The notes: a model not told the origin generated them from the letters alone. 64,000 nt of DNA from an uncultured Alphaproteobacteria bacterium (GCA_963721625.1 CAVRKF010000012.1:104283-168282); one strand, 5' to 3'; positions 9,314 through 39,876 are shown, counted from the first letter of the stretch. Made by a program: numbers and translations.

Positions 9314-9338
9314 CGCGATCCGCCGGCGCGCCGGAAGC

Positions 9339-19613: not shown

Positions 19614-21291
19614 ATGGAGCTGGTTGATTTCCTTGTGACGCGCGGCCGCCTCGACGCGGTGCATCGCGAGCGCGTGCTGGCGCTGCGCCGCGAGCGCGGC
19701 GAGAGCGAAAGCGTGATCATCACCCGGCTCGGCATGATGAGCGAGCGCGAGATGGCCGAATGCCTCGCGGCGTTCCTCGACGTCCCGCTCGCCGCGCAAC
19801 GCGACTATCCCGCAGCGCCGCTGTTCGCCGCCGCCTTGCGGCCGGATTTCCTCGCCCGCGCCCGCGCCGTGCCGCTCCAAGACACGCCCCAGGGATTGGC
19901 GTTGGCGATGGCCGATCCGACCGACGACTACACGATCAAGGCGGTGCGCATCGCCGCCGGCCGTCCCGTGCTGCCCTGGGCCGCGGTGCCGAGCGAGATT
20001 GGCCGCGCGCGCTCGAGCGCCTCTACGGCGGCGGCGCCGGCGCGGCGGCACCACACGGCGTGTCGGCAGCGCGCGCCGCTGCCGCCGCGCCCGACGACGT
20101 GCGGCGCCTCGCCGATCTGGCCAGCGAGGAGCCGGTCATCCGCTACGTCAACCGGCTCATCGCCCATGCCGCGGCGGCGCGCGCCTCCGACATTCACATC
20201 GAGGCCAGTCCCGACCGCGTCGTGCAGCGGCTGCGCATCGACGGCATGCTGCGCGACATCGAGCCGCCGCCCGCGGGCCTTCACGACAACATCGTCAGCC
20301 GCATCAAGGTGATGGCCGTCGCTCAACATCGCCGAGCGCCGGCTGCCGCAGGACGGCCGCTTCCGCATGGTCGTCGAGGGCCGCGAGATCGACCTGCGCA
20401 TCTCGATCGTGCCGACGCTGCATGGCGAGAGCGTGGTCATGCGGCTGCTCGACCGCGAGCGCGCGCCGCTCGATCTCGCCGGCGTTGGGCTTCGGTGCCG
20501 TGCTGCGGCGCGACTTCGAAGCGCTTCTGGCGCTGCCGAGCGGCATGCTGCTCGTCACCGGCCCGACCGGCAGCGGCAAGACATCGACACTCTATGCCGC
20601 GCTGTCGCTGCTCAATACGCGCGAGCGCAAGATTCTCACCGTCGAGGATCCGGTCGAGTACCAGCTTCCCGGCGCCAACCAGATTCCGGTGCGGCCGGCG
20701 ATCGGGCTCGGTTTCGCCAATCTGCTGCGCTCGCTGCTGCGCCAGGACCCGGACATTCTGCTGGTCGGCGAGATCCGCGACCTCGAGACGGCGCGGATCG
20801 CGGCGCAGGCGAGCCTCACCGGCCATCTGCTGCTGTCGACGCTCCACACCAACGACGCCGTCAGCACGATCGTCCGCCTCCTCGATATGGGGCTCGAGGA
20901 TTATCTCATGGCCTCGGTGCTGCGCGGCGTCATGGCGCAGCGCCTGGTGCGCTGTCTCTGCCGTCTCTGCCGCGAGGCTTACGTGCCGCCGCCGGCGCTG
21001 GTCGAGCGGTTCGGCCTCGCGCCGCCCGCCGATGGGACGATGCGGCTCTACCGCGCCAAAGGCTGCGAGGCCTGCGGCGGTACCGGCTATCACGGCCGCA
21101 CCGCCATCGCCGAGCTGCTCGTGGTGGACGAGCGGTTCCAGCCCTTGATTCTCGGGCGCGCCGATGCGCGGGCATTGCACGAGGCGGCGCGCGCCGGCGG
21201 GCTGGTCGATCTGCGCCGCGACGGGCTGGCGAAGGCGTGCGCCGGCGTCACCTCGCTCGACGAGGTGCTGCGCGTGACCGGAGCCTCCTGA
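19614..21291 (+). pseudogene. gspE: type II secretion ATPase GspE, three frame breaks
   Basis: Joined from ORFs 19614..20312, 19760..21148, the frame of 20367.. and 19999..21291. It shows the N-terminal GspE domain, [14 protein letters not shown], Walker [11 protein letters not shown], the Asp/His boxes ([20 protein letters not shown]) and the tetracysteine motif CxxC...CxxC. Junctions are near 20005, 20320 and 20480. Confidence 0.9.
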
Positions 21292-21292
21292 C

Positions 21293-22501
21293 ATGCCGCG
21301 CTTCCGCTATCGCGCGCTGCGCCCGGTCGGCGGCGAGGTCGCAGGCGAGCTGGTCGCCGACGATGCCGGCGCGGCGGCGAGCCAACTCCAGTCCGCCGGC
21401 AGCTTTCCGATCGAGATCGCGCCGGTTTCCGGCGCTTCCTTCGCGTGCCCGCCGTCGCCCGACAGCGGCGCTTGGCGCAGCGCGAGCTCATCCTCTTCAC
21501 GCGCCAGCTCGCCGCGCTGCTCGCCGCCGGCGTGGCGCTCGACCGCGCGCTGGGGCTGATCGCGGGCGAGCGTGGAAGCTCGCGCCGTGCGCTCCTCGCT
21601 GCGGCGCTGCGCGCGGCGGTCAATCGCGGCGAGAGCCTGTCGCGCGCGACGATCGAGCACAACGTCTATACCCCCGCGCATGCCATGGTGATCGCCGCCG
21701 GCGAGGCGCGCGGCGATGTCGCCGGCGCGCTGGAGCGGCTCGCCGCCGTCCTCGAGCGCAACCGCACGATCAGCCAGTCGCTCATCGGCGCGCTCATCTA
21801 TCCCGCGAGCGTGCTGGTCGTCGCCTGCCTGTCGGTCTCGTTCCTGCTCGGCTTCGTCGTGCCGCGCTTCGCGACCCTGCTCGAAGGGTTCCGGCGCGAG
21901 CCGCCGCTGTTGATGCAGGCGATTGCTCGATTTCTCGCGCCTCGTTCACGATTACGGCGCGCCCGTTGCCGCGGTCATCTTTGCGCTCGCCGCGCTCTAC
22001 GTGTTCAAGCGGCGGGATGCCTCGTTCCGCGTCGCGGTCGACCGCCGCCTTTTCGCGCTGCCGGCGGTGGGGACGCTGTTACGCAAGATCGAGACCGAGC
22101 GCCTTGCCTTTCTCCTCGGCACCATGGTGGCGGCGGGCGTGCCCGTGCCTTCGGCGGTGGCGGCCGCGCGCGCGGCGGCGACGAATGCGGCGCTGCGCGA
22201 GGGGCTTGCCGAGGCCGAGCGCGCGATCGAGCGCGGCGACGGCGTGGCCCAGGCGCTCGCCGCGCCGCGCCTCCTGCCTGAGCTCACGCTCGAACTGATC
22301 CGGGTCGGCGAGGAGACGGGCGACCTCGCGCCCATGCTGCTCAAGGCGAGCGACATGCTGCGCCAGGAGATCGAGGCCACCGCCAGCGCATGGGTCGCGC
22401 TGGTGGCGCCGTTGAGCATCGTCATCCTGGGGCTCATCATCGGCGCCATCGCGCTTGCCATCTTCAGCACCGTGCTCGAGGTCTATGACGTTGCCACCTG
22501 A
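21293..22501 (+). pseudogene. gspF: type II secretion inner-membrane platform protein GspF, two frame breaks (net frame restored)
   Basis: Joined from ORFs 21293..21559, 21445..22281 and 21923..22501. It shows two GspF repeats (FTRQLAALLAAGVALDRAL...; LAFLLGTMVAAGVPVPSAV...) and the C-terminal TM ...IILGLIIGAIALAIFSTVLEVY. Junctions are near 21450 and 21925. Confidence 0.9.
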
Positions 22502-22911
22502 CACGCGCCGCGGCGGCGGCTTCACGCTGCTCGAATTGCTGATCGTGCTGGCGATCTTGAGCCTTGTCGTGGCGCTGGCCGTGCCGCTCTACGGCCGGCG
22601 CAGCGCGAGCCGCAACACTCGCCGGCGCCACCCAGGAGGTTCGCGCAGCGCTGGCGGCGGCGCGTTCCGCGGCGATCGCCGAGGACCGCGACATCGTCTT
22701 CAGCGGCGGCGCCGACGGCTACAGCGTCGACGGCCGGCGGCATCGATTCCCGCCGGCGGCGGCGCTGTCCATCGAAGTGCGCGGCGGCACGCGCATTTCC
22801 TTCTTCCCCTCGGGCGGCTCCTCGGGCGGAAGCGTGATCCTGCGCCGCGCCGCCGCGCGGCGCGAAATCGCGATCGAAGCGATCACCGGCCGTGCCGTCC
22901 TGCTCCGGTGA
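22485..22911 (+). pseudogene. gspH: minor pseudopilin, GspH-like, one frame break
   Basis: The ATG at 22485 lies in the frame of ORF 22455..22937. The prepilin leader and hydrophobic helix read RRGGGFTLLELLIVLAILSLVVALAVP. ORF 22564..22911 continues with ATQEVRAALAAARSAAIAEDRDIVF...ISFFPSGGSSGGSVIL, which is typical of GspH/FimT and not of GspG. The junction is near 22600. Confidence 0.7.
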
Positions 22912-23299
22912 CCGCCGCGCGGCGGGATTCTCCCTGATCGAGGTGCTGTTCGCCCTCGCCGTCGTCGGGATCGCGCTCGGCACGGCCGCCAGCGTGTTCG
23001 GCAATGGCATTCTCGGATATGCGGCGGCACGCGATGTCGATACCGCGCTGGCGCTGGCGCAGGGAAAGCTCGCCGCGGCCGGCGTCACCGCGCCGCTGCA
23101 GCCGGGCGTATCCGACGGCGTCTTCGCCGGCCGCTTCGCCTGGCGCCTTTCGGTCGCGCGCTTCGACGACAGCGCCGCTCCGCCGCCGCCGGCCCCGTTC
23201 GGGCTCTATCGCATCGACGCCAGCGTGGCGTGGCGCGAGGGGCCGCGCCGGCGCGAGATCGCGCTCTCGACGCTGCGGCTGGTCGCGGCGCCGCCATGA
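22892..23299 (+). CDS. gspI: minor pseudopilin GspI
   Basis: Intact ORF with a GTG start. The prepilin motif is AAGFSLIEVLFALAVVGIALG, the size is about 135 aa, and the gene overlaps the end of gspH. Confidence 0.75.
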   Translation: MPSCSGDRRAAGFSLIEVLFALAVVGIALGTAASVFGNGILGYAAARDVDTALALAQGKLAAAGVTAPLQPGVSDGVFAGRFAWRLSVARFDDSAAPPPPAPFGLYRIDASVAWREGPRRREIALSTLRLVAAPP

Positions 23300-23890
23300 G
23301 CGGCAGCGCGCGCCGGCACGGCTTCACGCTGGTCGAGGTGCTGATCGCGCTCGCCCTCACCGGCATCGTCGCGATGCTGCATGCTCGAGGGCATGCGCTT
23401 TGCCACGGCCGGGCTGGAGCGCGCCGCGGACCGCGCCGACCGGCTCGAAGCGCGCCGCAGCTTCGAGGCGCTGTTGCAGCGCGAGCTCGGCGTCACCTTC
23501 GTCGCACCGCTCCTGCCCAACGCTCCGGCGCTGGTCGGCGGCAGGCAGAGCCTGCGCTTCCTCACGCTCGCCGAGGACGGCGGCGCCGGGCTCTATCGCG
23601 TCGACGCTCGACGGTCGAGACGCGCGGCGGCGCGCCGGCGCTGGTCGAGACGCGGCGGCGGGTCGGCGGCTTGCGAGCGCTCGACACGGCACGCGCTATT
23701 GTGGTGCCGCGGCTCCGCCACCTGCGCATCGCCTATTTCGGCAGCACCACGCCCAACGACGCGCCGCAATGGCACGAACAGCTGGAACGGGCCGCTCTAC
23801 CCGCCGACGCTCGTTCGCATCGACCTCGACAGCGGCGACGGGCTCGCGCAGCCGCCGCTCGTCGTGCGGCTGTGGGCCGCGCCGGGCTGA
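23297..23890 (+). pseudogene. gspJ: minor pseudopilin GspJ, several frame breaks
   Basis: The ATG at 23297 gives MSGSARRHGFTLVEVLIALALTGIVAML (frame of ORF 23230..). ORF 23381..23890 supplies MLEGMRFATAGLERAADRADRLEARRSFEALLQREL... and the C-terminus ...YPPTLVRIDLDSGDGLAQPPLVVRLWAAPG. A middle stretch (ALVETRRRVGG...RIAYFGSTTPNDAPQWHEQ) is in a third frame. Confidence 0.6.
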
Positions 23891-23891
23891 G

Positions 23892-24798
23892 ATGCGCGAC
23901 CCGGCGAACCATAATGCGATCGAGCGCGAGCGCGGCTCGGTCACCATCCTCGTGCTGTGGGGCGTGGCGATCATGTTCGTGCTGCTGGCCGCGGCCGGCT
24001 TCACCACCCGCACCGAGATTCTCGTGGCGCGCAACGCGGTCGCGGCGATGCGCGTGCGCGAGGCCGCCGAAGGCGGCACGCAGCTCGGCCTGGCACGCCT
24101 GCTCGCGCGGCACGCTGCCGGCACCGCGATCTTCGACGGCAAGCCGCGAGACGTGGCGGGACGGAACCGTGTCCGTGGCGCCATCGCGATCGCGGACGAG
24201 GCCGGCAAGATCGACCTCAACCAGGCGCCGCTCGAACTGCTTGCGGGCCTGTTCGAGGCGGTGGGGCGGCCGGAAGCGGACGCGATGCTGCTCGCCTGCC
24301 GCATCGTCCAGCGCCGCGGCAGCCCCGCCCCGGACTGTCCGCAGCCGAACGACGCGCGATCAGGCGCCGTTTCAGCCGGCGCTCTTCACCGCGCCCGAGG
24401 AACTGGCCGGGCTGCCGGGGATGGACGACCGCCTCTATGACGCGGTCGCCGACAGCGTCACCGTCGCGACCGGCGCCGCGGCGATCGATCCCGCGGTCGC
24501 GCCGCGCACGGTGCTGCTCGCGCTGCCCGGCGCCACGCCGGACATGGTCGACGCCTATCTCGCGGCACGAAGTACGTGGCGCGCGATGGCGCCCGAGGAC
24601 AGCGGCTTCGAAACGCTGCCGGGCTTTCCCTATCTCATGGTGAGCCCGGATCGCGATTTCACCGTGAGCGCGATCGCGGCGGCGCCCGACGGCGCGCGCT
24701 TCCGCGCCGATCTGCAGATTCGCCTGACCGGCCTGGCGACCCACCCTTACCAGATCATGGCGTGGCGGACGCCGCCGCTGCGCGCAGGACGGCGCTAG
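23892..24798 (+). pseudogene. gspK: minor pseudopilin GspK, one frame break
   Basis: The ATG at 23892 (frame of ORF 23004..24440) gives ERGSVTILVLWGVAIMFVLLAAAGF...IADEAGKIDLNQAPLELLAGLFEA. The C-terminal half (FTAPEELAGLPGMDDRLYDAVADSVTV...) is in the frame of ORF 23230..24798. The junction is near 24360. Confidence 0.75.
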
Positions 24799-24875
24799 AC
24801 ATACCGGCCGCGAGCGATGCAAGCCGGCGCGGCATCTGATATGGTTCGCCGCGATCGCCGCCGAGAGCTTGCCCC

Positions 24876-25967
24876 ATGACCGTCGCCGCCGACGAGCCGA
24901 AACCGCGGGCGCGCGCCCGTTCGCTGGCGCGCGCGCTGCGGTGGTGGCTCGGCGAACTGCGCGGGCTTTGCGCGCGATGTGGCGCGGCAATTCGATCGGC
25001 GGCCGCAATGCGATCGTCATCGAGGTCGGCGAGCGCTATTGGATCGTGCGGCAGCGCCGGACGCCTGCTCGGGCAGATCGACCGCGCCGCCGCCGATGCG
25101 GCCGCAGCGCGGCGCAGCCTGCGGCGCCTTGCCGCAACCGGCGGCCGGTCTGGGGCGGTCGTGGTCGAGATCCCGCCAGAGCGCGTGCTGGCCAAGCGCA
25201 TCAGGCTGCCGGCGCATGGCGCAGCGCGAGATCGAGCGCGTCGCTGCATTTCGAGATCGCGCGCCACTTCCCCTTTCCGGCCGAGCGCGTCCATTTCCGC
25301 CATCGCGTCATCGGCCGCGCCACCGCGGCACGATCGAGGTCGAGATCGTCGCGGTGCCGCGCGAGATCGTCGCCGAGATCTGCGCCGAGCTCGGCCGGCG
25401 CCGGGTTGCGGCATCAGGGCCGTCGTCGCCGCGGGCGGCGCCGGCGCGCCGGCGCTTGCGCTGCCGGTCGCGGCGATCGGCGCCGGCGCTCGGCCTCGCG
25501 CGCGGCGCGCGCTGGCTCGTCGCGCTGCTGCGGTGCTCGCCGTCGCGGCGCTGGCCGCGCCGATCGTCCACGACCGGATGCGGCTCGCCGCAGTCGACGC
25601 GCGAGATCGCGGCGCTGCACAGCCGCGTGGTGGCCAGGCGTCGCCGCCGCGCACGCAGCAGCACCAGCCGCGAGCCGAGCGCGCCGCCGGGTCCGCTGCG
25701 CCTCAAGGCGGCGCGGCCGCCGCTCGTCGCCGTGCTCGACGCGCTGACCCAGGCGGTGCCGGACGGGTCGTGGCTCGCCTCCCTCGACGTGACCGGGCAC
25801 GAGATCGTCATGAGCGGGCTGTCGCCTTCGGCGGCGACGGTCGCGCTCGCGCTCGAGAACAGCCGCGCCTTCGCCAACGTCGTGTTCCGCTCGCCGATCC
25901 TGCGCGATCCCGCCACCGGGCTCGAGCATTTCGAGCTCGCGGCTGCCATCTCGAGCCGAAACCGTGA
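24876..25967 (+). pseudogene. gspL: type II secretion protein GspL-like, many frame breaks
   Basis: Position after gspK. Recognisable pieces are spread over ORFs 24876.., 24869.. and 24979..: LRWWLGELRGL; VVVEIPPERVLAKRIRLPA; FEIARHFPFPAERVHF; EVEIVAVPREIVAEICAEL; LDALTQAVPDGSWLASLDVTGHEIVMSGLSPSAATVALALENS. The assignment rests on order and general resemblance. Confidence 0.55.
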
Positions 25968-26491
25968 CCGCGGCGCGCGCGGCGGCGCTTCTCATCCTGG
26001 TGGCCTGCTCGCCGGGCTGTGGATCGGGCCGGTCGCGGCCTATCGCGGTTTCGTCGCTGACGGCGCCGATGCGGCTCGCCGCGGCCGAGCAGAAGCTTCT
26101 GCGCTATCGCGCGCTGCTTCGCGCGCCGCAGCCGGCGGCGGCGCCGATCGATGCGACAGGCAGCGCTCTTCCCCGCGGCTTCCGCCGCCCAGGCGGACGC
26201 GCTCCTGCAGCAGACGCTGAAGGCCGCGGCAGCGGCGGCGCAGGTCGAGATCGAGGGACTTCAGGTGCTGCAGCCCGCGTCGCTCGGAGGCGCGAGCCGG
26301 ATCGGCGTGCGGCTCAAGGGACGCGCCGACATCGCCGCGCTCGACCGTCTGCTCTATGCCATCGAGACATTCGCGGCCGCTGCTCTATCCCGACAATCTG
26401 CAGATCCAGTCGCGCGCGGGCGGCCGCAGCGCCGGCGCCGCTCGAATTCCAGGTCGACGTGTCGGGGTTCACGTCCGGGGCCGCGGCATGA
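25964..26491 (+). pseudogene. gspM: type II secretion protein GspM-like, several frame breaks
   Basis: The GTG at 25964 overlaps the gspL stop. A TM piece LLAGLWIGPVAAY is followed by ...ADALLQQTLKAAAAAAQVEIEGLQVLQPASLGGASRIGVRLKGRADIAALDRLLYAIE (ORF 26151.. frame) and the end ...APLEFQVDVSGFTSGAAA (ORF 25964.. frame). Confidence 0.5.
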
Positions 26492-26984: not shown

Positions 26985-29900
26985 TCAGCGGCTGACGCGG
27001 CCCGTCTGCCGCAGCGGCGCGGGCACGGGCGGGCACGAAATTCTTCGGTGTCGACGCCGTCGGTCACGGTGTAGAGCTTGCCGTCCGGCCCGATATAGAA
27101 CTTCTGCATCTCGGCGAGCGGTGAAGGGGCGCGAGCCGATGCGACCGAAGACCGCGATCTGATGGCCGGTCTCGTCGACGCCGCGGTCGCGTTCGAGCCC
27201 GCGCGAAAGCGCCAGCGCCGGCGACGCGGTCGTGATACCAGGCGATCAGCGCGGGCTTCGGATCGGGCGAGAAGCCGTAGAAATTCGGGCTGCGCTGTCG
27301 GGCGAGGTGAGCTGGATCACCTTCAGCCCGTTGCGCCGTCGGCGACATAGGCGAAGAGCGAGGCGTTGGTCGCGCCGACGACCACGTCGCGGGCGTCGTC
27401 GAGCTTGCCGCCGGCGGTATATTGCATGTAGAGCTGCGGATGGTCCGGCCGCTCCACGTCGATGATCGCAAGCCCGTCGCTTGCCGTCGGCGACATAGGC
27501 GTAGGTGCGCGCCACGAACACGCGGTTGGCATGGGCGAGCGGCACGTGCGCGCCCTTGACCACGACGCGGCTGCAGCGGATCGGTGACGTCGACGACATC
27601 GAGCCCGTCCGCGTCGGCGACGAAGAGATAGCGGAACTGCACCGCCGTCGCCGCGCGCGCCGGCGATCGGGATCACCGCCATGACCTTGGGATGGAGCGG
27701 GTCGTCCATGTCGAGCTCGACCACGCCGGCATCGGCGCTGACATAGAAATGCGTTCCCGCGATCGTCAGGTGGCGCGCGCCCTTGAGGATGTCGCCCTCG
27801 TTCCAGGTCAGCGCGCGGGTGAGGAAGTTGTTGCGCGGCTCGCCGTCCTGCAGCGTGTCGACATTGGTGAGGATCAGGCCTTCCTCCGCATCCGTGATGA
27901 AGGCGTAGTTGTAGATCGGATGCATCGGCTGCTCTTCATTGTCCTCGCGCATCACCTTGGCGAAATCGACATCGGGCAGCAGGGTCTCGTCCTTGCCGGC
28001 GTTGCGCAGCGGGTTGATCGGCTGGTTGGTCGGCAGCGCGACGCAGGTGGCGTCCTTCGAGGCGATATGGGTGTCCTGGCCCAGCGGCGAGACCGGCGCG
28101 GTGATGATGCGCTCGGAGACGTCCTTGTTGGCGATGCTGGCGACGTCATAGACGCGCATGCCGCGCGTGCCTTCGGCGACGTAGAGATATTCGCCGCGCA
28201 GCTGGATGCACTGCGCGTCGTTCGAGTTGTGGCCATAGGCTTCCTTCAGCTCGCGGCCGTTGGCGAGATGCGCCTTGTAGTCAGTCGGGATAGGCGTATT
28301 TCTGCAGATAGCTGCCGATCACCGCCTGCGGCTCGTCCCATTCGGTGACGCGCACCGCCTCGATGTCGTGCGCCTCGCCGACCCAGGCATTGTAGCCGAC
28401 GAAATTGACGAAATTGGTGCCCAGCAGCAGGAGCTGCGCCATGATCGCGTTGTTGTCGTTGGCCGCGGAGACGTGGCAGTCGGTGCAGGTCTTGGTCTCG
28501 GTCGTGCGCTCGGTGTGCGGGTAATGCGGCGAGAAGGCCTGGCTCGAGAAGCCCGACGGAGGAGATCGGCGGCTGCTGCACGTAGATGTGGCTCGCGGTT
28601 GATGTTGGTCGATGACAGCACCAGCGCCGAGCGCGAGCGCGATCGGCGCGATGATGTTGCCCTTGAGCGTGCCGGCGATGCCGAGCTGGAACATGTCCTC
28701 GCGCGCGACCTGGGGATTGTAGGTCGCGAAGTTGCGGGTCTCGCCGCCTTCGTAGTGGTGGCGCGTCGGTCTTCCAGTTCGCCTCGATCGGCAGGTGGCA
28801 GCCGGCGCAGCTCGTGGTCCAGGACAGATGGCAGGTGAAGCACGCCATCTTGTCGTTGTGGGCGAGCTGCGGTTCGCGGCACGCCCGGTCCCCACTTCAT
28901 CGAGTGCGTCGTTCGACATGAGCTTGGCGCGCGCCGCCGCGGGATTGTATTTGGGGCTCGCCGGATCGACCGTGTCCTTGACCAGCGTCACCTCCCATTC
29001 GAGGTTGGGATAGACCGCCGAGCGCTGATAGAGCTTGCCGTCGCGCCATTCGAAGCGCTTGCGGCCGTCGGTGGTGCGCAGCAGCGACAGATCGGTGCCG
29101 CCGGGCGGCGCGGCGGGACCGCTGGTGCGCAGAGTTGGGATAGGCCGTCGACGGTGCCGTGGCAGTCGACGCAGGTGATCTCGATCGCGCCCTGCACCTC
29201 GCCATAGATATGGCCGCTGCCGTGCGCGTCCTGCGCGAAATGGCAATCGACGCATTGCATGCCGTAATCGACATGGATCGATCGAGATGCACCGCCTTCT
29301 TGAACTTCTCCGGATCGTCGTTCGCGACGATGTTGTTGGCGTCGTCGAGCAGGTTGCCCTTGCGGTCGCGCTTGAAGACGGCGCGGAAGTTCCAGCCATG
29401 GCCGTGATAGTCGGCGAACTGGGTGTCCTTGATCTGGGGATTGAGCGTCGCTCGACATCGGCGCTGAAATCGGGATCGGCCCAATTGCCGCGCGGCGCCG
29501 CGCCTTCGGGATTGCGGTCGTTGACGGCGCGGATTCTCGGCGGCGGTCGGATATTTCTGCTTCTCCGGCCACATCTGCGGCGCCGCCGTCTCGTAGTCCC
29601 ACATCGTGTAGCCGAGCATAGGTGTTCATGAACAGGTTCGGCTGATGCATGTGGCAGATCATGCATGGCTCGGTCGGGATCGCGTCGGTCATGACGTGGC
29701 GCAGCGGATGCGCCGCATTCGTCTTGGGGAATGGTCGGATCGACGCTGGCGCTGGTGCCGCCGTTGCCGAACTTGGCGTAGGGGCCGGACGCCTCGATGT
29801 CGCGGTCGTTGGCATAGACCACGTGGCACGCGGCGCAGCCGGAATTGCGATAATCGCCGGGATGGTCGTTGGTGCCGATGAACCAGGTGAAGGGATCGTT

Positions 29901-30822
29901 GAGCCGCGTCTTGGTGATGTTGAGGACCGGGATCGACGACGCGCAGGCCGGTGCCGGGCCCGCGATTGGACTGGCGGATGTCGGGCCGGCCCGGCTCCTC
30001 CAGACGCTCGAATCTCGCCGGTCGAATCGGGCAGGCCGATCTCGGGAAACTGCGTGCCGATGTTGCGGCCGCCGCGCTCGAACACGCGGAAGATGTCGCC
30101 GGGCGGCGTCACCTCCCACGCCGGCAGCGGGTAGAGCTGGGCGATGATGCCGTGATCGTGGGTCATCTCCGGCGTCGGCTTCACCGGCGCGACGAGGCTC
30201 GCGGGCTTGCCGTCGCGCGTATAGGCCTCGCCGAGGATCGCAGTGCTTGAACGGCACGATGCCGTTGTTGTAGGCGGCCGCCGCCCAGAAATGCGCCGCC
30301 GTCGCCATCAGGCTGCGCTCGGCCGCCTGGATGATGGCGAGATGGCAGGCGCCGCAGGCCTCGCGCGCGACGCGGTAATCGGACGGATTGACGAAGCGGA
30401 TGAACTCCGGCGCCTCGCGGTTGAGCAGCGTGTAGCTGTCGCTCGCGGCTTGGCGCTCGACGGCCAGTTCCACGCCTTGGGATAGCGCGGCTGGACATGC
30501 GCCTCGTCCTCGAGACGTGCGATATTCGTCGCTGCCCGGCTGCGATGATGCCCGCGCGCATCACGCCGGGATCGCCGCCATGGCAATCGGCGCAGCCGAG
30601 ATTGATGCCGACGCTGGTATGCATCGTCGGCGAGTCGGTCGCGGTGTGGCAGGTGATGCAGCCCGCGCTCTTGGCCGCGGCCGCGGCCGGCGTCTGCATC
30701 GCCGGCGCCGGCGGGAACGGCGTAGTGCGCGCGCGCTTCCGCTCGCGTCGGCACGGCACGCCGATCGCCGCCACGGCGAGGATCAGCGCGAAGGATGAAG
30801 CTATGATCGCTTTCGGCACCAT
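26985..30822 (-). pseudogene. multiheme (10 x CXXCH) cytochrome c fused to a C-terminal LVIVD-repeat beta-propeller; many frame breaks
   Basis: The ATG at 30822 gives MVPKAIIASSFALILAVAAIG (signal/anchor). Heme motifs seen in the ORF-track translations are CITCH and CADCH (30181..30822); CGACH, CAACH and CTDCH (28281..30473); CMICH and two CVDCH (28988..30184); CFTCH and CAGCH (28246..28848). The LVIVD-type repeats are GMRVYDVAS, GLILTNVDT, GVVELDMDDPLHP, GLDVVDVTDPLQP, GLAIIDVERPDHP and GLKVIQLTSPDS (ORFs 27323..28159, 27064..27642, 27246..27599). The propeller frame is open up to 28282 and overlaps the apparent cytochrome stop at 28281..28283. Confidence 0.7.
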
Positions 30823-30829
30823 CGGTCAC

Positions 30830-32694
30830 TCAATATGTCAGGACCACGTTGACGAGAACAGAATAGAGAAAGTTGCCGCCTGAAACGGGCGTCGAGTTCC
30901 CGGTCTGATAGAGCGCCGTCAAGCCCGGCGCCCGGCGCGAGCACCGCGCCCGACAGCCGCAGCACGATGTTCTGGGTGTCGAGCGGCCGGTAGGTGAAGG
31001 CGACCGACAGGTCATAGCCGATGCGTGTTGGGAATGTCGGCCTGGTGGCGCAGGAACTCGAGCGTCGCGGTGTTGACGAAGCGCAGATAGTTGAAGTTCG
31101 CCGAGATGCGCAGCTCCGGCAGGACGTCGAAATCCGCGCCCGACGCCGAGCAGCTCGAGCCCGGGATTGGTGAAGTTCGACTGGCCCTCGTCCTTCGAGG
31201 AGCGCAGATCGGCGAGGATGCCGTTGGGCTGGGTCAGCGCGACGCCGCCGCCGCCGATCAGCGGAATGCCCTGGCGGATCCAGTAGCTCGAATCGGCGCC
31301 GGCGAATTGCGGGTTCTCGAAGATCGCGTCGAAGCCCGTGGCGCGGCCGCCCTGCGGGTTGCCGTCGCCGCTGGCGTAGAGCGCGGAGGCGCGGACGCGG
31401 AACCAGTCGAAATCGATCGACGGCTCGGCCGCGAAGAAGAAGGCATCGATGAATTGCGGGGTCTTGGTCGGCGCCGCCGCTGAACTCGTTGTTGTCCTGA
31501 TGGCCGAGCGCCCAATAGGTCGACAGCGTCAGGTTGAGGCGGCCGAAATGCCCGTCGCCGTTATAGCCGAGATAATTGACGTCGTAGTTGTAGCCTTGGA
31601 AGTTCCCGACCGGCAGCGGCCGCACCAGGAAGCCGTTATTGTCGTAATAGATCTCGCCGCCCTCGTGGTTGGTGTTGCGGACATAGGTGATCTGCGAGGT
31701 GAAGCCGGGAACCGGCAGGTCCTGGCGATAGAGATTGGCGACGAAGACGTCGTCCTTGCGCAGCTGCTTGCCGATGTCGTTGAGGCCGCTGTTGGTGTCC
31801 TTCTCCAGCCGGCGGAAATAGGCGAGGTTGTATTGCCAGCGGTTGTTGTCGCGGTTGCCGAACAGGCGCACGCCGAGCTGGCTGTCCTGGAACAGGAAGC
31901 CGCGGAAATCGGTCGAGAAAGGCTGGATGCCGACGCGCACCGAATCGAAATCGTAGCGCTCGGACGACGTTGCGGAGGTGATAGTCGACGAACGCCTCCT
32001 GCAGCGCCGGGAACGAATCGTCGCGCGTCGGTCCCGTGCGCCGGATTGACGTTGACGACGCCCAGCTCCTCGACGTCGGTGTGGTTGAAGTTGAAGGCCG
32101 GCGTCAGGCTGAATTCGAGATCGGGCGGCTTGAAGGCCGTGTCGCCCTTGATGAGATCGAGAGTCTGAGGATGCCGGTCTGGCTCACCAGCGTGCGCCCA
32201 TATTGGCCGAAGACGCTGTTCGAGCCGGGACGGGCGCTTGCCTGCGGCGCCACCGGCGTCGGCACGCGCGCCGGCTCGTAGAGCGTGTCGCTGATGGCGC
32301 CGAAGCTGAAGAACCAGTCATTGCCGAAGATCGGCTTGTCGCCCTTCAAGCGTGTTGGTGTTGTAGGGATCGAACATGTTTTCGTTGCGCCCGAGCGCAT
32401 CGAGGATGCGCCAGCGGTCGGGCACGGGGATGAAATCGTCGCTGGTCGTAGGCTGCGGCGGCGGGACGGCGTTGGGATTGCCGAGCTCGGGCGGCGGCGC
32501 CACCGGCGGCGGCGGCTCGCCCGGGAATGCGCCGCTCCTCGTCCGGCAGCGCCGTCTGGTCGTCGCCAGTACCGGGCATCTGTGCCGTTGCCGGCGGTCC
32601 CGCGACATCGCCGCCAGCGCCAAGGCCAGCACGCCGCATCGCCCGATGCGCCGCGCCGCATGCGGAGCGGGCGGCGCTGCGCCCTCAATCGCAT
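30830..32694 (-). pseudogene. outer-membrane beta-barrel (porin-like) protein, several frame breaks
   Basis: Pieces are in ORFs 32318..32770 and 32104..33492 (signal-like GVLALALAAMS; DFIPVPDRWRILDALG; KGDKPIFGNDWFFSFGAISDTLYEP). ORF 30801..31940 adds FSTDFRGFLFQDSQLGVRLFGNRDNNRWQYNLAYFRRLEKD...NYLGYNGDGHFGRLNLTLSTYWALG. ORF 30830..31015 gives the end, ...GGNFLYSVLVNVVLTY (terminal aromatic residue). The stop lies 7 nt before the start of the cytochrome-propeller gene. Confidence 0.6.
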
Positions 32695-34700
32695 GGCGTC
32701 TGCTCGCGCGAGGTGAGGAACGGCGCCGGCGGGCAGGTGACGTAAAGCGGCGTGAACGGCTGCGAGCCAACCTGCGGCGTGAGCGAGACGCGCGCCGGGT
32801 TGTCGGCGCGGATGGCGGCGGGCGCGTTGGCGAGATTTCCCGCTCCCAGCGCGCCCACGCTCGCGTCGCCCTGGATGCCGAGATAGGCGATCAGCGCGTC
32901 CTGCTGCATGCCGTCGCCGGAAATGCCGAGCGCGCCGACCAGTTCGCCGTTGCGATAGATCGGGATAGCCGCCGGAGAAAATCTGCAGTCCGTTGGCGAT
33001 CTGCGGTCTTGGCTTCGGGGCAGGCATTGGCCGGGCCACGGCCCACGATTGCGCTGCCGCAGCCGGCCGCCGGTCGCCGCGCCACCGCCGAGAATGTTCA
33101 CGAGATCGGCCTTGATGAGATCGATCTGAAGCCCGGTCGAGAACACGCTCCACGAGCCGATCGGCAGGCTGAGCGGCCGTTCGCCTTCGCCGTCCTGGCC
33201 GTCCGGGAAAAAGGGCCGCGCGAGGTTGCCGATCGCGAGCTCGGAAAACGCCGTGCCGCTGGCTGAACAGGGTCGGACGCGTCGACGCTCTCCGCGTTGG
33301 CGTAATAGGAGAACTTGCCGGTCGGCGCTGCTCGGCGCGCGGCGGCGCGCCGACGGGCTGCCGATGATGCTCGATCGTGAAGGCGCTCTGTCGCGTCGCT
33401 GCGCGAGAAGAACACCGCCGAGCGCGCCTTCTGCAGCGACACGTCGGCGCCGAAGACCGGGGCATCGGGCGTGCGCGCCATCGCCAGCACATTGCCGTCG
33501 AGATCGACGACGCTGGCCGTCACCTGCGCATTCGAATTGGCTCGGGATGCGGATGCCGGCGCGGGCTGCCTGCGGCGACCGTGAGCGCGTTGCCGACCAG
33601 CCTGGTCGCCTCGGCCGCGGTGATGGCGTGGCCGTCGGCGGGCGCATGTGCCGGTCGTCGGCGGAAAGCGGTTCGCCGCCGTGCCGGTGCCGACAGTCAT
33701 AGGCGTTGAGATTCGGCCGGATAGGACGCCGCCCCGCCGGCAGCGACGCGTCGGGGAAAATGCCCGAGCCGCCGCGGTGCCATAGGTCATGCCCCGCCAA
33801 TGCCGCGGCGCCGGCGAAGAAGCCGGGCACCGGCGATGAGCGTCGGCGGCGTTATGGCGGCGACGCCCGGCTCGATGCACCGTCGATGGTCCGAGGTAAT
33901 CGAGATTGGCGCCGTTGACCGCGACGTTTGGCGCCTGAATTTGCGCCGGCGCCGCGAAGCCGACCGCCCCGGCGAGCGCGATCCCCTCGTCGTTGCTGTC
34001 GCCGAGGTGGTGCTGGGATTGAGCGAATAGGTCGCGGTGCTCATCACGCCGATGCCGCCGACCAGCACGCCGTTGATATAGAGCGGCAGGCCGCCGGGAT
34101 CGGCCGCCAGCCCGAGCGGCGCATGCATGCGGCCCCGCCGCGGCGCCCCGCCCGTCAGGCCGCGGCTGAAGTCGGAGCACGGCAACTGGCTGAACTGCAC
34201 GCCGAAGAGCGGGCCCGACCGGGTAGCCGTTGACGCCGAGCGGGAAATGCTGCTGGATGATCTGGTTGGCGGTGCGGGTCGAAAAGGCATTGCCGCCCGA
34301 TGAGAGATAGGCGCCGGTGATCGCCTTGGAGATCGCCGCGAGGGTGGTCGGGACCGCCGTATCCTCGAGCCCGGTCGTCGACGCCGGCGTTCGAGGTGAT
34401 CGGTGGCCATCGGCTCGGCGCGCCGGTCATGACTGCGCCACGGCGAGCACGTTGCCGACGCGGTCGACGACCGCGATGATCGCCGGCGTCCCCCTGACGG
34501 TCGCCTCGTTGGCCGCCTGGTTGAGGATCTGTTGCACCTGCGTCGGCGCTGAGCGCCGTCGTGGTCTGGTCGGGAACCGTATAGTTCGCTGCCGGAGAGC
34601 CCGCCGCCGCCGCCGCCGCAATCGGACGGCGCCGCGCACAGCACCGACAGCACCGCCATCGCCGCCTTGAACGCAGGATGCGACAGCAGCGGCCAGCGCC
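32685..34700 (-). pseudogene. secreted protein with two GlcG/HbpS-like (DUF336, heme-binding-type) domains, many frame breaks
   Basis: Copy 1: QVQQILNQAANEATVRGTPAIIAVVDRVGNVLAVAQS (ORF 34427..34639) plus GGLPLYINGVLVGGIGV (ORF 33787..35220). Copy 2: VTASVVDLDGNVLAMARTPDAPVFGADVSLQKARSAVFFS (ORF 33098..34180) plus IPIYRNGELVGALGISGDGMQQDALIAYLG (ORF 32685..33830). The N-terminus is hydrophobic (AMAVLSVLCAAPSDC). The 5' end is approximate. Confidence 0.6.
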
Positions 34701-34718
34701 GGCGGAGTGCCGTGGCCG

Positions 34719-36459
34719 CTATCGGTCCCGCCGCATCATTTGCGCGGCGCTCGCGGTCTTCATCGGGCCCGAACTCCTGGCGGTGGAAGAGATGGCAGGA
34801 GGTGCAGGTCGAGCGCGTCTTGAGCACGGCGCGCTCGGCGCCGTGGCAGGCGACGCAGGTCGCGATGCCCGGCAGCAGCACGTCGCTGCTCTTTTCGGAA
34901 TGCCGCGCGTCGTGGCAATGCGGCGCATGGCGAGCGCCGCATGCTTGGCGTGATCGAATTGCGCCTCGGGCAGGAAGCGGGCGCGCAGGAAGACGGGCGC
35001 CACGGTGAAATTGCCGCCGCTGCGGTCGGTCACGTGGCAATAGGCGCAGCCGCGCTTGGCGTCGAAGATGATGCGCCAGCGCGTCGTTGGCGCGCTGCGC
35101 CGCCCAGGCGAGGGCGTCGCGGCGCTCCGGTCTCGGTCGGCGGCCGGCAGCGGCGTGCCCACCGGGCGCCGCACGACCGCCGGCGCATCGGGATCGTGCA
35201 CGCCGCCCTGCGAGCGCCATGCGGGCATAGAAATCCTCGACCGCGTGTCTTCACGCGCGCCAGCGTCGCCATGCGGCACTTCCCGCCACGGCAGGTCGGC
35301 ATCGAATTTGAGGTCGTGGCAGGAATGGCACTGGCCCTCGAAGGTGATCAGGCTGGAATCCCTGCCCGCTCGGCTCGGGCACATGGCAGTCGGCGCAGGC
35401 CATGACCTTGTGCCCCGCGGGCGTGAGGAAACCGGTCGCGATGAGATGCGCCGCATGCGAGAAGACGAGATTGGAACGGTCCACCGGTTTCGGCGGTGCG
35501 CGCCGAGCAGCATGCGCGCGAAGCGCGGTTTCGCGGCATCGGCGACCACCGTCGCGCGGAACTGCGGGATGGCCGGCGGGAAATCCCGCCACGTCCCGGA
35601 CCCCGGCCTTGGGCGCGGTCGCGGCGAGCGTGGCATGGCAATCGACGCACAGCGCATCCGCCTTGATCACCATGCCGCTGAGGCCGCGATGCTCCTCGTG
35701 GCAATCGGCGCAGCGCAGTCGCGGCGAAATCCTGGCGCGAGGTCGCCGACATCCGCGCCGGCGGCGACGTGACTGCCGATGCCGGCATGGCAGCCGAGAC
35801 AGGCCGTGTCGGATACGCTGGCGAAGGCGCCGCGGTGGCAGGTCGCGCAATTCTGCGCGAAGAAGCGGTGCGGGTTGGAGATGGCGCCGGCGTTCCACGA
35901 CAGGTTGACGAAGTTGACGCGGCACCGAGCGGCGCGGACCGGCTTGCCCAAGGTCGCGACCTGGCCGAAGGAATAAACCGCGACCGGCAGCGCGCAAGCC
36001 CGAGGATGGCGACCAGCGAGAAACAGCACCCACGACCAGCGCCGCCGGCTCCATCCCGCCTGCGCCAGCCCGATGCGGCTTTCGCCGACGAGCCGCTCGA
36101 AGCGCATCGCCCAGCGGCTGCACGAGCTCGACCGTGAGCGCCGCATCGGCGCCCTGGGGCGGCGCGATGACGATGACCTCATAGGGACCGATATGGATCC
36201 GGTCGCCCGGACCGCCACGGTCGCGCTCGTCGGTGCTCTCGCCGTTGACGCGCAGCGGCTCGTCGCCGGCCTGCTGCACGAACAGCCCGCCCTCGCGCTC
36301 GGCCAGCACCGCCGCGTGCAGGCCGACGCGGATGTCGGGAAGCTGCACCTCGTTGTCGCTGCCGCGGCCGAAGCGGAGACTCTCCGCCGTCACGGTCTGC
36401 GACTTGCGCATGATCGCGTCGGCGCCGCGCCGGGTGAGGAAGGTGACCTCAACCTGCAT
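34719..36459 (-). pseudogene. FHA domain - transmembrane - multiheme (9 x CXXCH) cytochrome c3-family protein, several frame breaks
   Basis: The ATG at 36459 gives an FHA-like N-terminus (SLRFGRGSDNEVQLPDIRVGLHAAVL...LRVNGES...IHIGPYEVIV, ORF 35251..36459). A TM follows (WSWVLFLA...). The heme motifs are CATCH and CLGCH (ORF 35667..36218); CADCH, CVDCH and CADCH (35251..36459); CHSCH and CAYCH (34719..35657); CVACH and CTSCH (33787..35220 frame). The 3' end is uncertain to within tens of nt. Confidence 0.7.
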
Positions 36460-36523: not shown

Positions 36524-37346
36524 TCACCAATAGAAGAAGACCGAGAAGACATGGGCGAGCGAGCGCCGCCAAGCAGCGCGAAGGACAGCGGCACGTGGAA
36601 ATAGAGCCAGAGATCCATCATCGCCTTGTAGCTGACGTCGCGCCGGGCGCGGGTCAGAAGCTGCGCCTTCTCGTCGAGCAGCACGCGAACCTGCCGGTAG
36701 GCGGCCTGCGTCCTCGGGCGGGCTGCGGGCGGCGATCGCATCGACGCCGCTGAGCGCCGCCGCCGTCGTGCAATGGGGATAGCGCGCGCTCACCTGCTGC
36801 CACACCGAGCCGCCGATCTCGGTATGCTCGATCGCCCGCGTCACCAGCCGCGCCGTCGGCGTCGTCGAGCGCCATGGCGCCGGCGCGCAGCTCGTCGTTG
36901 AGCGCCGGCGATCCGGCCGAGCATCTGCGGCATCGTCGTGCTCGCCGCGGTTGCGGGTCATGAGCCGCGGGTAATGGACATAGCAATAGATGCCGAAGGC
37001 GCCGCTCGCGATGACGAGGCACATCAGCGCATAGGCGAGCGGTGTGGATGTTCCAGCCGAAATGAAAGCCGGTGTGCGAGCGTGGCGACGACGAGGAGCG
37101 CCAGGCCGAGATAGACATGCGCCGACAGCCACGCCTCGAGCTTGCCCTGATTGCTGCGATAGCAGCGCTTGCGGTAGCCGAACCACATCAGCCACAGGAT
37201 CAGCAGCGCGCCCGCCGTGCCGAGGACGTAGCCGACCCAGGTACCGCCATAGCGGCTCGTTGAGCGGCCGCTCGCCGAAATAGAGCACGATGGAAACGAC
37301 GCACCGCCGCCGCCGCGATCTTGAGATAGAAAAAGCGGCGGTACAT
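36524..37346 (-). pseudogene. integral membrane protein of unknown function (about 4 hydrophobic segments, conserved His residues), several frame breaks
   Basis: The ATG at 37346 gives MYRRFFYLKIAAAAV. Hydrophobic pieces appear in three frames: WVGYVLGTAGALLILWLMWF; AWLSAHVYLGLALLVVATL.HTGFHFGWNIHT; AYALMCLVIASGAFGIYCYVHYPRL; MDLWLYFHVPLSFALL; and the end ...AHVFSVFFYW (ORF 36524..37288). Confidence 0.45.
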
Positions 37347-37425: not shown

Positions 37426-39876
37426 TTACCGCGCGCTCCGGATGACGGAGATGAACTGCTCGGGATTGACGCGGATCGCGGCGCCCGTGGGGCAGGCCCG
37501 GACGCAGGCCGGGCCGCCGGCGATGCCCTTGCACATGTCGCACTTGACCGCGTGCTTGCTCCCGGTCCGCCGGGCCAGGCCGTCGGGCGTCTTGTCCTCG
37601 CCCGGACCGTTGCCCGCGCCCGAACAGGAGCCAGCTCAGGAGCCCCGGCTTCGCCGCCGGCACCGCCGCCATCTGGATCACGCCATAGGGGCAGTTGCGC
37701 TCGCAATTGCCGCAGCCGATGCATTTGTCGTCGATGAACACCTCGCCGTTGGGCGCGCGGTGGATGGCGTCGGCGGGGCAGTCCTTCATGCAATGGGGGT
37801 GCTCGCAATGCCGGCACGAGGTCGGCACGTGGAGCGTGTCGTAGGTCGGGCCGGCCTCGCGGTTGAGGCGGCTCACGCCGTGATGGGTCTCGGCGCAGGC
37901 CTTCTCGCAATTGTCGCAGCGCACGCACAGCGCTTCGTCGATGAGCAGCACATCGGTCGCCTCGCCAAGACCCTGGCGGATGAGGAACTCGATGATCCCG
38001 CCCTCGGTCGCGCCATGCTCCATCCGGCGCTGTTCCATCATGCGCTGCTCGAGCCGCTCCTCGACCTCGCGGCGCAGCTCCGGGACGCGGTCGAGCAGCG
38101 CGCGGAAGGCGGCGCTGTCGATCTTGATCGCCTCGGTGGCGACCGCGGCCTTGACCGTGGCGGAGCGCTTGGACTTGGTCAGCATCGCCATTTCGCCGAC
38201 ATAGTTGCCGGCCGGGAGATAGGCCAGCACGATGTCCTTGCCGGCGATGCGGCGCGACACCGTCACCGAGCCCGTGCGCACGAGATAGACGGGATCGTCC
38301 TCGGCCCCCTCCGCGATCAGCGTGTCGTTGGGCTTGAACTCGACGACCTGCGGCGGTGCGCAGCACGTCGGCGAGCAGCGCGTCCTCGACTCCCGGCGCG
38401 AGATACGTCTTGATCTGGCGCACGACGGCGGCGCCATCGACGATCCGCTTGATCTCGGGCACCGAGCGCACCAGGCGGACCATGATGTTGCGGTCGACCT
38501 CGAGCAGCAGCGAGGGCGCGGTGGCGACCGTCGTCGCGGTGCGCCGGCGCCCGGAGATGAGGCCCATCTCGCCGAAGAACTGGCCCGGGCCGAGCCGCAC
38601 CAGGGTGGCCGGATTGGCGGGGTCGATCTCGATGCCGACCTCGCCGTCGAGCACCGAATAGAGCGAGTTGGTGTAGTCGTTGCGCTGGAAGATCACGTCG
38701 CCCGGGTTGGGCTGATGGATCTCGGAATGGATGCAGGAATTCGCGGATCTGCAGCGGCGTGAGCGCGGCGTAGAGCGGCAGCCGCTCGCGCACGGCGGTG
38801 ACGAGTTCCGTCACCGTCATGCGCACCCCGGCGCTGGTCGAGCTTGTCCTGGATCAGCGGCTCGTCAGCCGGCGGGATGCGGTTGCCGAGGATGTATTCG
38901 ACGACCTCATAGCCCTGGTTGAGGCAGTGCTTGATCAGCGGATACCCGGCCAGCGCGCCGATGATGTAGAGCCCCGGAATTTCCGACTCATAGGTTTCGG
39001 ACACTTGCGGGAAGGCGGTCGGGCTGTCGCTGGGAAAATGGATGCCGCAGGATCTCGACGAATTTGCGCGGCGGCAACGCACCGATGCGGGCGATGATGC
39101 GGTCGCATTTGACGCGCGCCTCGCCGTCCGCGGTATCGAGGACGAGAAAGCCGGGCTCGACGCGCTTGGGCTCGGAATTGGAGAAGGCCGTGATCGCGCC
39201 TTTGTTGATCGCCCCTTGCATCAGTGCCGCGTTCGCGGGCTTGGCATAAGGGAAGTCGGCGACCCGGTTGATGATCGAGACGTTGTTGTTGAGCGAGAGC
39301 GCCAGCGCGTTCTCGATCCCGGCATCGCCGGTGCCGATGACGATGATCTCCTCGCCTTTGTACTCGTCGGGATCATCGAGCTGATACTGGACGAAGGGAA
39401 GCTCGGCGCCGGGGATGGTGAGCTTGCGCAGATTGCCCTGAACCCCGATCGACAGCACGACATGTTCGGCCGTGAGCGTCTCGCCGCCGGCGAGGCCGAT
39501 CTCGAAGGCGCCGCGCTGGCCCTTGATCGCGGTGACCTCGGCATTGAGGCGGAGATTGACCTTGGCGCCCCCGATGCCCTGCATCCAGGTGTCGATCACC
39601 TCCTCGCGCGAGCTCTCCTTGAAGCCGAGTTCGCTGCGCAATGGCAGGAATTCCGGCGTCGCCATGACATGCTTGCGCTTCTGGTACTTGAAGATGGTGT
39701 CGTTGACGTGGGCGGTGCGCTCGATCAGGATGTGCTTCTGACCGTCCTCGCGCCGCGCGCGCCGCAGCGCTCAGCCCTGCCGGCCCCGATCCGACAATGG
39801 CGATCGCATAATCAGCGGCCACCGCATCCCCCACATCAAAGCGAACGCGCCTCACTCTCCCCGCGCGTTCTTGCAC
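37426..39876 (-). pseudogene. multidomain oxidoreductase: FAD/NAD(P)-binding (thioredoxin-reductase-like) + two cyclic-nucleotide-binding domains + 4Fe-4S ferredoxin domain; several frame breaks
   Basis: FAD motif YAIAIVGSGPAGLSAAARAA (ORF 39373..39876). Second Rossmann motif EEIIVIGTGDAGIENALAL (38988..39665), and PGLYIIGALAGYP (38693..39082). cNMP motifs GQFFGEMGLISGRRRTATTVA (37200..38696) and GNYVGEMAMLTKSKRSATVKA (37346..38437). Fe-S motifs CVRCDNCEKAC, CRHCEHPHCMKDCP and CIGCGNCERNCP, plus CDMCKG...ACVRACP read from the last frame. The stop is at 37426..37428. The start may be an internal GTG near 39834. Confidence 0.75.

Follow-up and report, generated by a model that had tools for sequence, protein, structure and literature searches.

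A decaheme cytochrome and an LVIVD beta-propeller as one gene: an apparently split member of a large, conserved family in an uncultured alphaproteobacterium

One gene behind two reading frames

In a 64,000-nucleotide stretch of DNA from an uncultured Alphaproteobacteria bacterium (GCA_963721625.1, CAVRKF010000012.1:104283-168282), hereafter called the window, a decaheme cytochrome and a beta-propeller of the LVIVD type lie one behind the other in two different reading frames. Comparison with orthologous sequences supports the view that the stretch 30822..26985 on the minus strand, here named g4, is a single gene coding for a cytochrome-propeller fusion, as an original prediction made on this DNA had proposed. 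It is an unexceptional member of its family, which is large, conserved and uncharacterized. All positions are plus-strand coordinates of the window, and the cytochrome and propeller sequences are read on its minus strand. Taken as a whole, the explanation developed here is considered highly probable.

When the two frames are joined across the intervening stop codon, the resulting junction query of 282 amino acids (71 residues of the cytochrome C-terminus followed by 211 of the propeller) retrieves 1172 homologues, many of which span 93-100% of it without a break; together with a best E value of 5.6e-165, such uninterrupted coverage puts the joined reading far beyond chance. A scan at one genome per species found a relative in at least 594 genomes, typically as one segment over residues 1-281. 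The closest orthologous locus, L002, belongs to a Stellaceae metagenome-assembled genome (MAG) and carries one ATG-started open reading frame (ORF) of 1270 amino acids at 7685..11497, with 90% nucleotide identity to the window gene. Its length equals the size of about 1270 residues foreseen for the fusion, and in a global alignment its ends map precisely onto the predicted limits 30822 and 26985. Single ORFs are also found in cultured isolates, namely in Marinobacter sp. S6332 (WP_247116097.1) and M. salexigens (WP_216008067.1), with 1249 amino acids each (in locus L043 the ORF gives 1260 amino acids from a TTG start, vs. 1249 in RefSeq), and in Sinimarinibacterium flocculans DSM 104150 (locus L071, 1241 amino acids). 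The proteins of 1270 and 1249 residues stand in NCBI as single proteins, named either 'hypothetical protein' or 'multiheme c-type cytochrome'.

About 68 of the 80 loci fetched for comparison hold a stop-to-stop ORF of at least 1233 codons which crosses the junction and contains exactly ten CxxCH heme-binding motifs, the remaining loci being cut at contig ends or coming from fragmented assemblies. Whether cytochrome and propeller form one ORF elsewhere can therefore be answered in the affirmative, from L002 through Marinobacter and Sinimarinibacterium to these loci, and separate genes for the two parts, which would have spoken against the fusion, were looked for in the fetched loci and not seen. 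The orthologues HUZ74622.1 (a Stellaceae MAG protein of 1270 amino acids), WP_247116097.1 and WP_216008067.1 show 59-88% amino-acid identity; they agree with the window gene in length, signal peptide, the positions of the ten CxxCH motifs, the propeller, and the upstream genes for a barrel, a lipoprotein and a decaheme protein with a forkhead-associated (FHA) domain. The window copy is distinguished from them solely by about 30 frameshifting insertions and deletions (indels), by which the one uninterrupted ORF of about 1230-1350 codons typical of the family is split.

Each part was also searched on its own. With the cytochrome domain only (773 amino acids), at least 7697 clusters at 90% identity were recovered, and nearly all of the best 120 matches are 1216-1347 amino acids long and carry the LVIVD family PF08309. 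The propeller-only query, run against 1.8 billion representatives, matched long proteins solely at their C-terminal residues (about 480) and retrieved no complete stand-alone propeller orthologue, the short matches starting at residue 1-2 and being fragments.

Several apparent departures from this gene structure were considered and set aside. A first search with the junction query listed only matches of at most 493 amino acids, several of them with frameshifted stretches (P0001, P0018, P0021, P0093, P0102); proteins of about 1250 amino acids being abundant in the collection, this list looks like an effect of ranking or selection, not of biology. A shorter stand-alone gene was ruled out by exact look-up and by the cytochrome-domain search, where the proteins of about 1250 amino acids dominate. 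A seeming triple fusion of barrel, cytochrome and propeller in L057 and L074 (about 1841 codons) consists of open off-frame readings over the barrel gene in GC-rich DNA, and an ORF with 14 CxxCH motifs in L047 extends across a masked stretch of N.

The junction between cytochrome and propeller

Read as the reverse complement (TAT CTG CAG AAA TAC GCC TAT CCC GAC TGA), the cytochrome frame ends in ...YLQKYAYPD with a TGA at 28281..28283, exactly as first described. In a three-frame translation, an upstream stop near 28318 is followed by an open frame, offset by one base, which reads NTPIPTDYKAHLANGRELKEAYGHNSNDAQCIQLRGEYLYVAEGTRGMRVYDV; through the junction the propeller frame reads ...PTDYKAHLANGRELKEAYGHNSNDAQCIQLRGEYLYVAEGTRGMRVYDV, continuing as DYKAHLANG after the cytochrome end. 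Deleting the T in cccgac[t]gactacaag joins both frames, and this one-nucleotide change, already pointed out in the original prediction, is the exact difference from the L002 orthologue. Orthologues pass through the same point as PDDYKAH, PDWYQDH or PDYYEAH without interruption, and P0001 reads ...SYLEKYAYPDDYKAHLAAGRELKEAYGH there. Among 58 full-length homologues, to which all statements on invariant residues below refer, conservation peaks at the junction (0.79-0.87 per 50 residues) and a His located five residues past it is invariant. In an AlphaFold2 (AF2) model of the homologous C-terminal 492 amino acids, the predicted local distance difference test score (pLDDT) is 88-94 on either side of the junction, which forms short helices after a beta-hairpin and not a linker.

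Two other readings of the stop codon bear on this site. If the stop were genuine and two real genes were present, the propeller would be translated separately from a downstream start. The public gene call P0032 does begin at ATG 28159, the beginning of a window ORF of 278 amino acids (27323..28159 in the ORF listing). However, this is the first ATG, GTG or TTG in the propeller frame, no start codon being found between about 28318 and 28159, which bears out the earlier statement that none is available ahead of the first propeller blade. The ATG at 28159 lies inside that blade (GMRVYDV), in a stretch conserved as internal sequence in all homologues; with the short stand-alone matches being fragments, a pair of real genes is exceedingly improbable. 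Programmed +1 frameshifting or stop recoding at GAC-UGA-C, whether prfB-like or through selenocysteine, deserves equally little credence. While the C after the UGA gives the site the look of a shifty stop, the extra T is absent from every orthologue examined, all of which read straight through in a single frame. Recoding would also need about 30 further events in the gene, and TGA taken as a sense codon leads into a frame without homology.

The fusion of both parts in one polypeptide thus stands, although not quite in the form first given to it. The junction stop is real in the sequence, but it was taken for a single break, and the other frameshifts, about 30 in the gene, were missed. As seen in the three-frame translation and in a phase plot of the GC content at third codon positions, the true coding frame switches every 100-300 nucleotides along the whole gene, and does so across most of 19.6-38 kb.

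Frameshifts in the window copy: error or decay

Relative to L002, g4 has about 30 frameshifting indels (32 by MAFFT, 37 by BLASTN). Its 34 gaps comprise 27 one-nucleotide and 2 two-nucleotide insertions, 2 one-nucleotide deletions, 1 deletion of seven nucleotides and 2 in-frame gaps. From 38617 to 17595, the window is colinear with L002 at 88% nucleotide identity over 21 kb, and in these 21 kb 205 gaps are found, with 144 one-nucleotide insertions vs. 22 one-nucleotide deletions. A homopolymer signature is absent, the same base adjoining 40 of the 144 insertions. All 13 genes compared are frameshifted, with 2-42 indels each, including those for GspE, a short-chain dehydrogenase and a patatin-like protein. 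Once corrected for indels, g4 has no internal stop, is 87.7% identical to L002 and keeps all ten CxxCH motifs; its mismatches with L002 fall on codon positions 1, 2 and 3 in the numbers 107, 69 and 208.

The lack of nonsense changes, together with this third-position bias, indicates that purifying selection acted up to the present. Bacterial pseudogenes are known for a deletional bias and for gathering deletions and nonsense changes. An insertion-heavy pattern is the opposite of such decay, so that a regional consensus error appears the most likely cause. Judged from the alignments, the extra T at the junction and about 190 other indels, mostly one-nucleotide insertions, across 17.6-38.6 kb are likely to be consensus or sequencing errors of the deposited assembly, and not mutations.

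Three points weigh against an error in the assembly. Firstly, the frame is stable for 2-3 kb elsewhere in the window (2.5-4.6, 7.5-9.4, 10.1-13.1, 41.3-42.9 and 55.1-57.4 kb), and the error would consequently have to be regional. Secondly, the public record holds the same frameshifts, P0032 being identical to the window ORF 27323..28159. Thirdly, error and real mutation are told apart here by sequence comparison and not directly from reads. The first two of these points, along with the sheer number of frameshifts in g4 and in each of its neighbors, speak for a cluster of real, decaying pseudogenes, in which the organism itself would carry the frameshifts and would have ceased to make the fusion protein. 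This reading is nevertheless improbable, given the bias of about 6.5:1 toward one-nucleotide insertions where pseudogenes would show deletions, a corrected gene free of nonsense substitutions with its ten heme motifs intact and its mismatches concentrated at third positions, and the involvement of unrelated genes (the type II secretion ATPase, the short-chain dehydrogenase and the patatin-like gene).

With the whole stretch of 17.6-38.6 kb riddled with indels, the gene calls within it are unreliable, in the public record too, and the apparently split gene of the window is to be treated as one gene. The segment 45800..51500 of the window is also phase-unstable.

Architecture of the fusion protein

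The signal peptide of g4 is followed by a cytochrome domain of about 840 residues and, without a linker, by the propeller (Table 1). A lipobox cysteine was found in none of the L002, L043 and L071 orthologues. The ten c-heme motifs counted in the original prediction are all present in the corrected translation at the positions they have in L002, and all are invariant. Besides them, 13 His and 3 Met are invariant in the protein, which, as far as conservation can tell, would be enough for six-coordinate ligation of all ten hemes. At about 84 residues per heme, the cytochrome domain is loosely packed with hemes when compared with the decaheme protein encoded upstream (see below).

Regarding the propeller, its invariant residues include His848 (28270) and the pair Cys868/Cys923 (28210, 28045). 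The LVIVD family PF08309 is matched with 71.8 bits in L002 and 91 bits in L043, vs. a gathering cut-off of 20.2. The AF2 model of the homologous 492-residue C-terminus, which includes the junction, is all-beta and confident (pLDDT 85.4, predicted template modeling score 0.89), and it matches propellers of 7 or 8 blades. Foldseek searches with this model retrieve only generic propellers of that size (WD40, AztD and designed proteins).

No curated Pfam or NCBIfam model covers the cytochrome domain, in which only local c3, c554 and c7 motifs are recognized. The ExtM cytochrome of the selenite/tellurite operon (NF040943) reaches 57-70 bits vs. a cut-off of 800, through a local motif match of 50 residues only, and an identity with ExtM, ExtN or ExtO was rejected on NCBIfam scores far under the cut-offs. 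PDB sequence searches with g4, with the barrel protein g3 and with a 19-sequence profile of the cytochrome domain gave no matches.

Table 1. Location of g4, its parts and its neighbors in the window.
Feature	Position	Strand	Remarks
g4, decaheme cytochrome/LVIVD beta-propeller fusion	26985..30822	-	1270 amino acids after indel removal; from the L002 alignment
N-terminal Sec-type signal peptide of g4	30743..30822	-	MVPKAIIASSFALILAVAA...; only hydrophobic segment of the protein
Span with ten CxxCH heme-binding motifs	28473..30660	-	corrected translation mapped to the window
CxxCH 1-4	30660-30646, 30594-30580, 30356-30342, 29837-29823	-	
CxxCH 5-7	29665-29651, 29254-29240, 29173-29159	-	
CxxCH 8-10	28842-28828, 28809-28795, 28487-28473	-	
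Junction	28281..28284	-	extra T, ATCCCGAC[T]GACTAC, makes TGA 28281..28283; without T reads ...YAYPD-DYKAH...
C-terminal LVIVD beta-propeller domain of g4	26985..28282	-	residues ~844-1270; PF08309, AF2 model
g3, outer-membrane beta-barrel gene	30830..32694	-	~616 amino acids, ends ...NVVLTY; directly upstream of g4
g2, lipoprotein with two HbpS-like/GlcG domains	32685..34798	-	~685 amino acids; PF03928
g1, cytoplasmic FHA domain, one transmembrane helix, periplasmic decaheme domain	34736..36459	-	~565 amino acids
Putative diheme cytochrome b, inner-membrane	36524..37346	-	~270-300 amino acids; 5 predicted transmembrane helices, two WX3HX13H, one SGXXG
Cyclic-nucleotide-binding and 4Fe-4S dicluster protein	37426..38600	-	PF00027, PF13247/PF12838; in 45 loci
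Intact tetraheme c554-like cytochrome	15201..16418	+	orthologue of the multiheme gene directly downstream of g4 in 42 loci
Type II secretion genes GspE, GspF, pseudopilin, GspL, GspM	19614..26491	+	convergent with g4; Pfam on L002 orthologues
Intact GspD secretin	2553..5069	-	15 kb from the type II secretion set

The conserved module around g4

The fusion gene is the last of a module in which the Fe-S/cyclic-nucleotide-binding protein, the diheme-b-type membrane protein, g1, g2 and g3 precede it. The order g1-g2-g3-g4 is colinear between the window and L002 and conserved across the fetched loci, g1 being kept upstream in nearly all of the 80. In g1, an FHA domain (PF00498) and cytochrome c7/c3 matches are found together with a transmembrane helix at about residues 139-160 and ten CxxCH motifs, at about 37 residues per heme. 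The two PF03928 stretches of g2 are matched in L002 (E 2.8e-19), its orthologue in Marinobacter has the lipobox LLTAC, and the gene is present in most loci. The product of g3 has a signal peptide and no transmembrane helices; its AF2 model, of moderate confidence (pLDDT 66), shows about 18 long strands, and the top Foldseek matches are the 18-strand barrel of AlgE (E 2e-13, template modeling score 0.62) and OccD/OprD porins. The dedicated barrel gene that had been noticed ahead of the fusion is thus upheld by model and fold matches alike. Concerning the putative diheme-b protein, its histidine motifs lie at residues 78 and 271 and its SGXXG motif at residue 119 in L043, with equivalent positions in L002; it has a weak Ni_hydr_CYTB match and is found in 52 loci.

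The tetraheme gene of the window has been displaced by about 11 kb from the fusion gene and onto the other strand. The type II secretion system (T2SS) genes of the window are each split over 2-4 frames (tblastn), and a T2SS set adjoins the module in L002, L003, L005, L008, L009 and L063 as well. In seven gammaproteobacterial loci (L043 12811..14755, L019, L044, L054, L066, L071 and L079), a PP2C phosphatase and a double-FHA protein come after the module; taken with the FHA domain that the inner decaheme protein g1 carries, they suggest a control by Ser/Thr phosphorylation. A CHASE2-domain adenylate/guanylate cyclase (7358..9313, minus strand) is located in the same neighborhood as the cyclic-nucleotide-binding Fe-S protein, and the two may form a cyclic-nucleotide regulatory link. 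Between the tetraheme gene and the cyclase, a CHAT-TPR protein of 1044 amino acids (10049..13183, minus strand) adjoins a two-partner-secretion transporter of the ShlB/FhaC type (13278..15068, minus strand).

Locus L001 (1..21461, fetched for P0018) is a 5'-truncated remnant among several transposases, a phage-type integrase and AlpA genes. As a locus truncated by transposases and integrase it was set aside as evidence on gene structure, and mobile elements are evidently able to break up the module in this way.

Comparison with known electron-transfer systems

The module recalls MtrCAB, and also MtoAB and PioAB, in several respects: g1 has a heme density like that of MtrA, g3 encodes an outer-membrane barrel, g4 is a larger decaheme cytochrome, and T2SS genes are nearby. 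MtrC of Shewanella needs the T2SS for its export. Nevertheless, the differences are marked. The barrel of g3 has about 18 strands and is AlgE-like in its AF2 model, vs. 26 strands in MtrB; g1 scores 27 bits vs. a cut-off of 192.2 for DmsE/MtrA (TIGR03508), carries an FHA domain and is anchored in the membrane; for g4 of L043 the MtrC/OmcA domain (PF22113) gives 18.8 bits vs. a cut-off of 30, and g4 lacks a lipobox and has a propeller. Membership in the MtrCAB family was rejected on the size of the barrel and on the family scores of both cytochromes.

A resemblance in gene content is found with the putative porin-cytochrome clusters PCC3 and PCC4 (He et al., 2017; PMC5566968). Like them, the module contains an inner-membrane protein of about 300 amino acids with five transmembrane helices, two WX3HX13H motifs and SGXXG, and, like subgroup II of PCC4, it has a PF13247 Fe-S gene immediately ahead of the gene for that membrane protein; a porin gene and several multiheme cytochromes are present as well (PMC5566968). 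PCC3 cytochromes are of low complexity and wire-like, with 21-63 hemes, while PCC4 has three periplasmic cytochromes of 4, 5 and 10 hemes and no extracellular cytochrome (PMC5566968). Compared with the published description of PCC4, the present module has 10 (g1), 10 (g4) and 4 (tetraheme protein) CxxCH motifs. It also differs by the FHA-anchored g1, the propeller fused to g4 and the HbpS-like lipoprotein, no propeller or FHA domain being named in the PCC4 description (PMC5566968).

Propellers have been brought together with multiheme cytochromes and a barrel in the Uet cluster of 'Ca. Tenderia electrophaga', a putative electron-uptake cluster with NHL-repeat propellers (bioRxiv 10.1101/2022.05.06.490989). 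There, however, the propellers belong to another repeat family and have genes of their own (UetH and UetI), and an undecaheme protein serves as the large cytochrome; the LVIVD protein mentioned in the same paper is unlinked to the cluster and has no heme (bioRxiv 10.1101/2022.05.06.490989). A pangenome paper on Gallionellaceae lists, uninterpreted, a 10-heme 'Forkhead-associated protein' cluster.

Proposed function and cellular placement

The composition of the module, with a membrane component, a heme wire, a barrel and a large distal cytochrome, matches that of porin-cytochrome conduits, and for this reason g4 is proposed, at moderate confidence, to be the distal redox protein of a conserved module that carries electrons across the envelope. 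The cyclic-nucleotide-binding Fe-S protein and the diheme-b-type membrane protein would transfer electrons between the periplasm and the quinone pool or cytoplasm. The membrane-anchored g1, with its FHA domain on the cytoplasmic side, would carry them across the periplasm to an outer end formed by the 18-strand barrel and the decaheme-propeller fusion, where the propeller could act as the binding face for a substrate, a mineral or a partner. The neighboring T2SS may bring the fusion protein to the cell surface, in the way known for MtrC in Shewanella, and the T2SS set may represent a dedicated export route for the cytochromes. By this analogy, surface placement of g4 through the adjacent T2SS has about an even chance of being correct.

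Several observations weigh against a conduit with g4 at the surface. With about 18 strands and a likeness to AlgE and OprD, the barrel is narrower than MtrB, whose 26 strands form a sheath around MtrA; a lipobox is lacking in g4; and T2SS adjacency is limited to a subset of alphaproteobacterial loci. No function could be assigned to g4 from a curated family, a PDB sequence or a fold match, and the conduit function is proposed from the composition of the module.

It can also be hypothesized, with somewhat lower probability, that the fusion protein remains periplasmic, working as an enzyme or as a sink for electrons. A soluble substrate (for example Fe2+, Mn2+ or a small redox-active molecule) would then enter through the barrel, and binding or catalysis would take place at the propeller, following the example of cd1 nitrite reductase or hydrazine synthase. 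A barrel of the 18-strand substrate-channel class, unlike MtrB, and a plain Sec signal would fit such a placement, and so would the globular, enzyme-like density of about 84 residues per heme in g4, vs. about 37 in g1. The model proposed for PCC4 likewise has only periplasmic multiheme cytochromes (He et al., 2017; PMC5566968). On the other hand, the 13 invariant His and 3 invariant Met suffice for ten hemes, so that no open catalytic heme is evident; no propeller enzyme is found among the Foldseek matches; a surface location is typical of LVIVD and choice-of-anchor-B proteins; and T2SS genes adjoin the module in loci of the Stellaceae type.

The most extended form of the envelope-spanning proposal is put forward tentatively, as something a little less probable than its alternatives combined. 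The module would be a widespread, undescribed conduit whose terminal decaheme protein is fused to a propeller docking a mineral, a metal or a partner, and it would be gated from the cytoplasmic side both by phosphothreonine, through the FHA and PP2C proteins, and by cyclic nucleotides.

Significance of the family

The original prediction regarded the fusion as unusual and without a characterized example. No paper describing a decaheme-LVIVD fusion was found in literature searches combining LVIVD with heme or cytochrome, multiheme with propeller and FHA with multiheme, or directed at PCC4, and that part of the claim holds. The protein is not unusual in public databases, where the architecture is already present in a large family, and so it appears to be new to the literature and not to the databases. 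With at least 7697 clusters and 594 species genomes as counted above, the family is very large, and no curated model, solved structure or paper was found for it.

The carriers include Stellaceae, Steroidobacteraceae, Rhodanobacteraceae, Burkholderiales, Methylococcales and Marinobacter, mostly aerobic Proteobacteria of soil, freshwater and marine habitats. To our knowledge, metal respiration has not been attributed to these common aerobic bacteria of soil and water. The conserved module to which the family belongs has more than 20 hemes and shows hallmarks of extracellular or trans-envelope electron transfer. If this module moves electrons over the envelope, a wider set of organisms and mechanisms would take part in the redox cycling of Fe, Mn or humic substances, and as several cultured isolates carry the module, the idea is directly testable.

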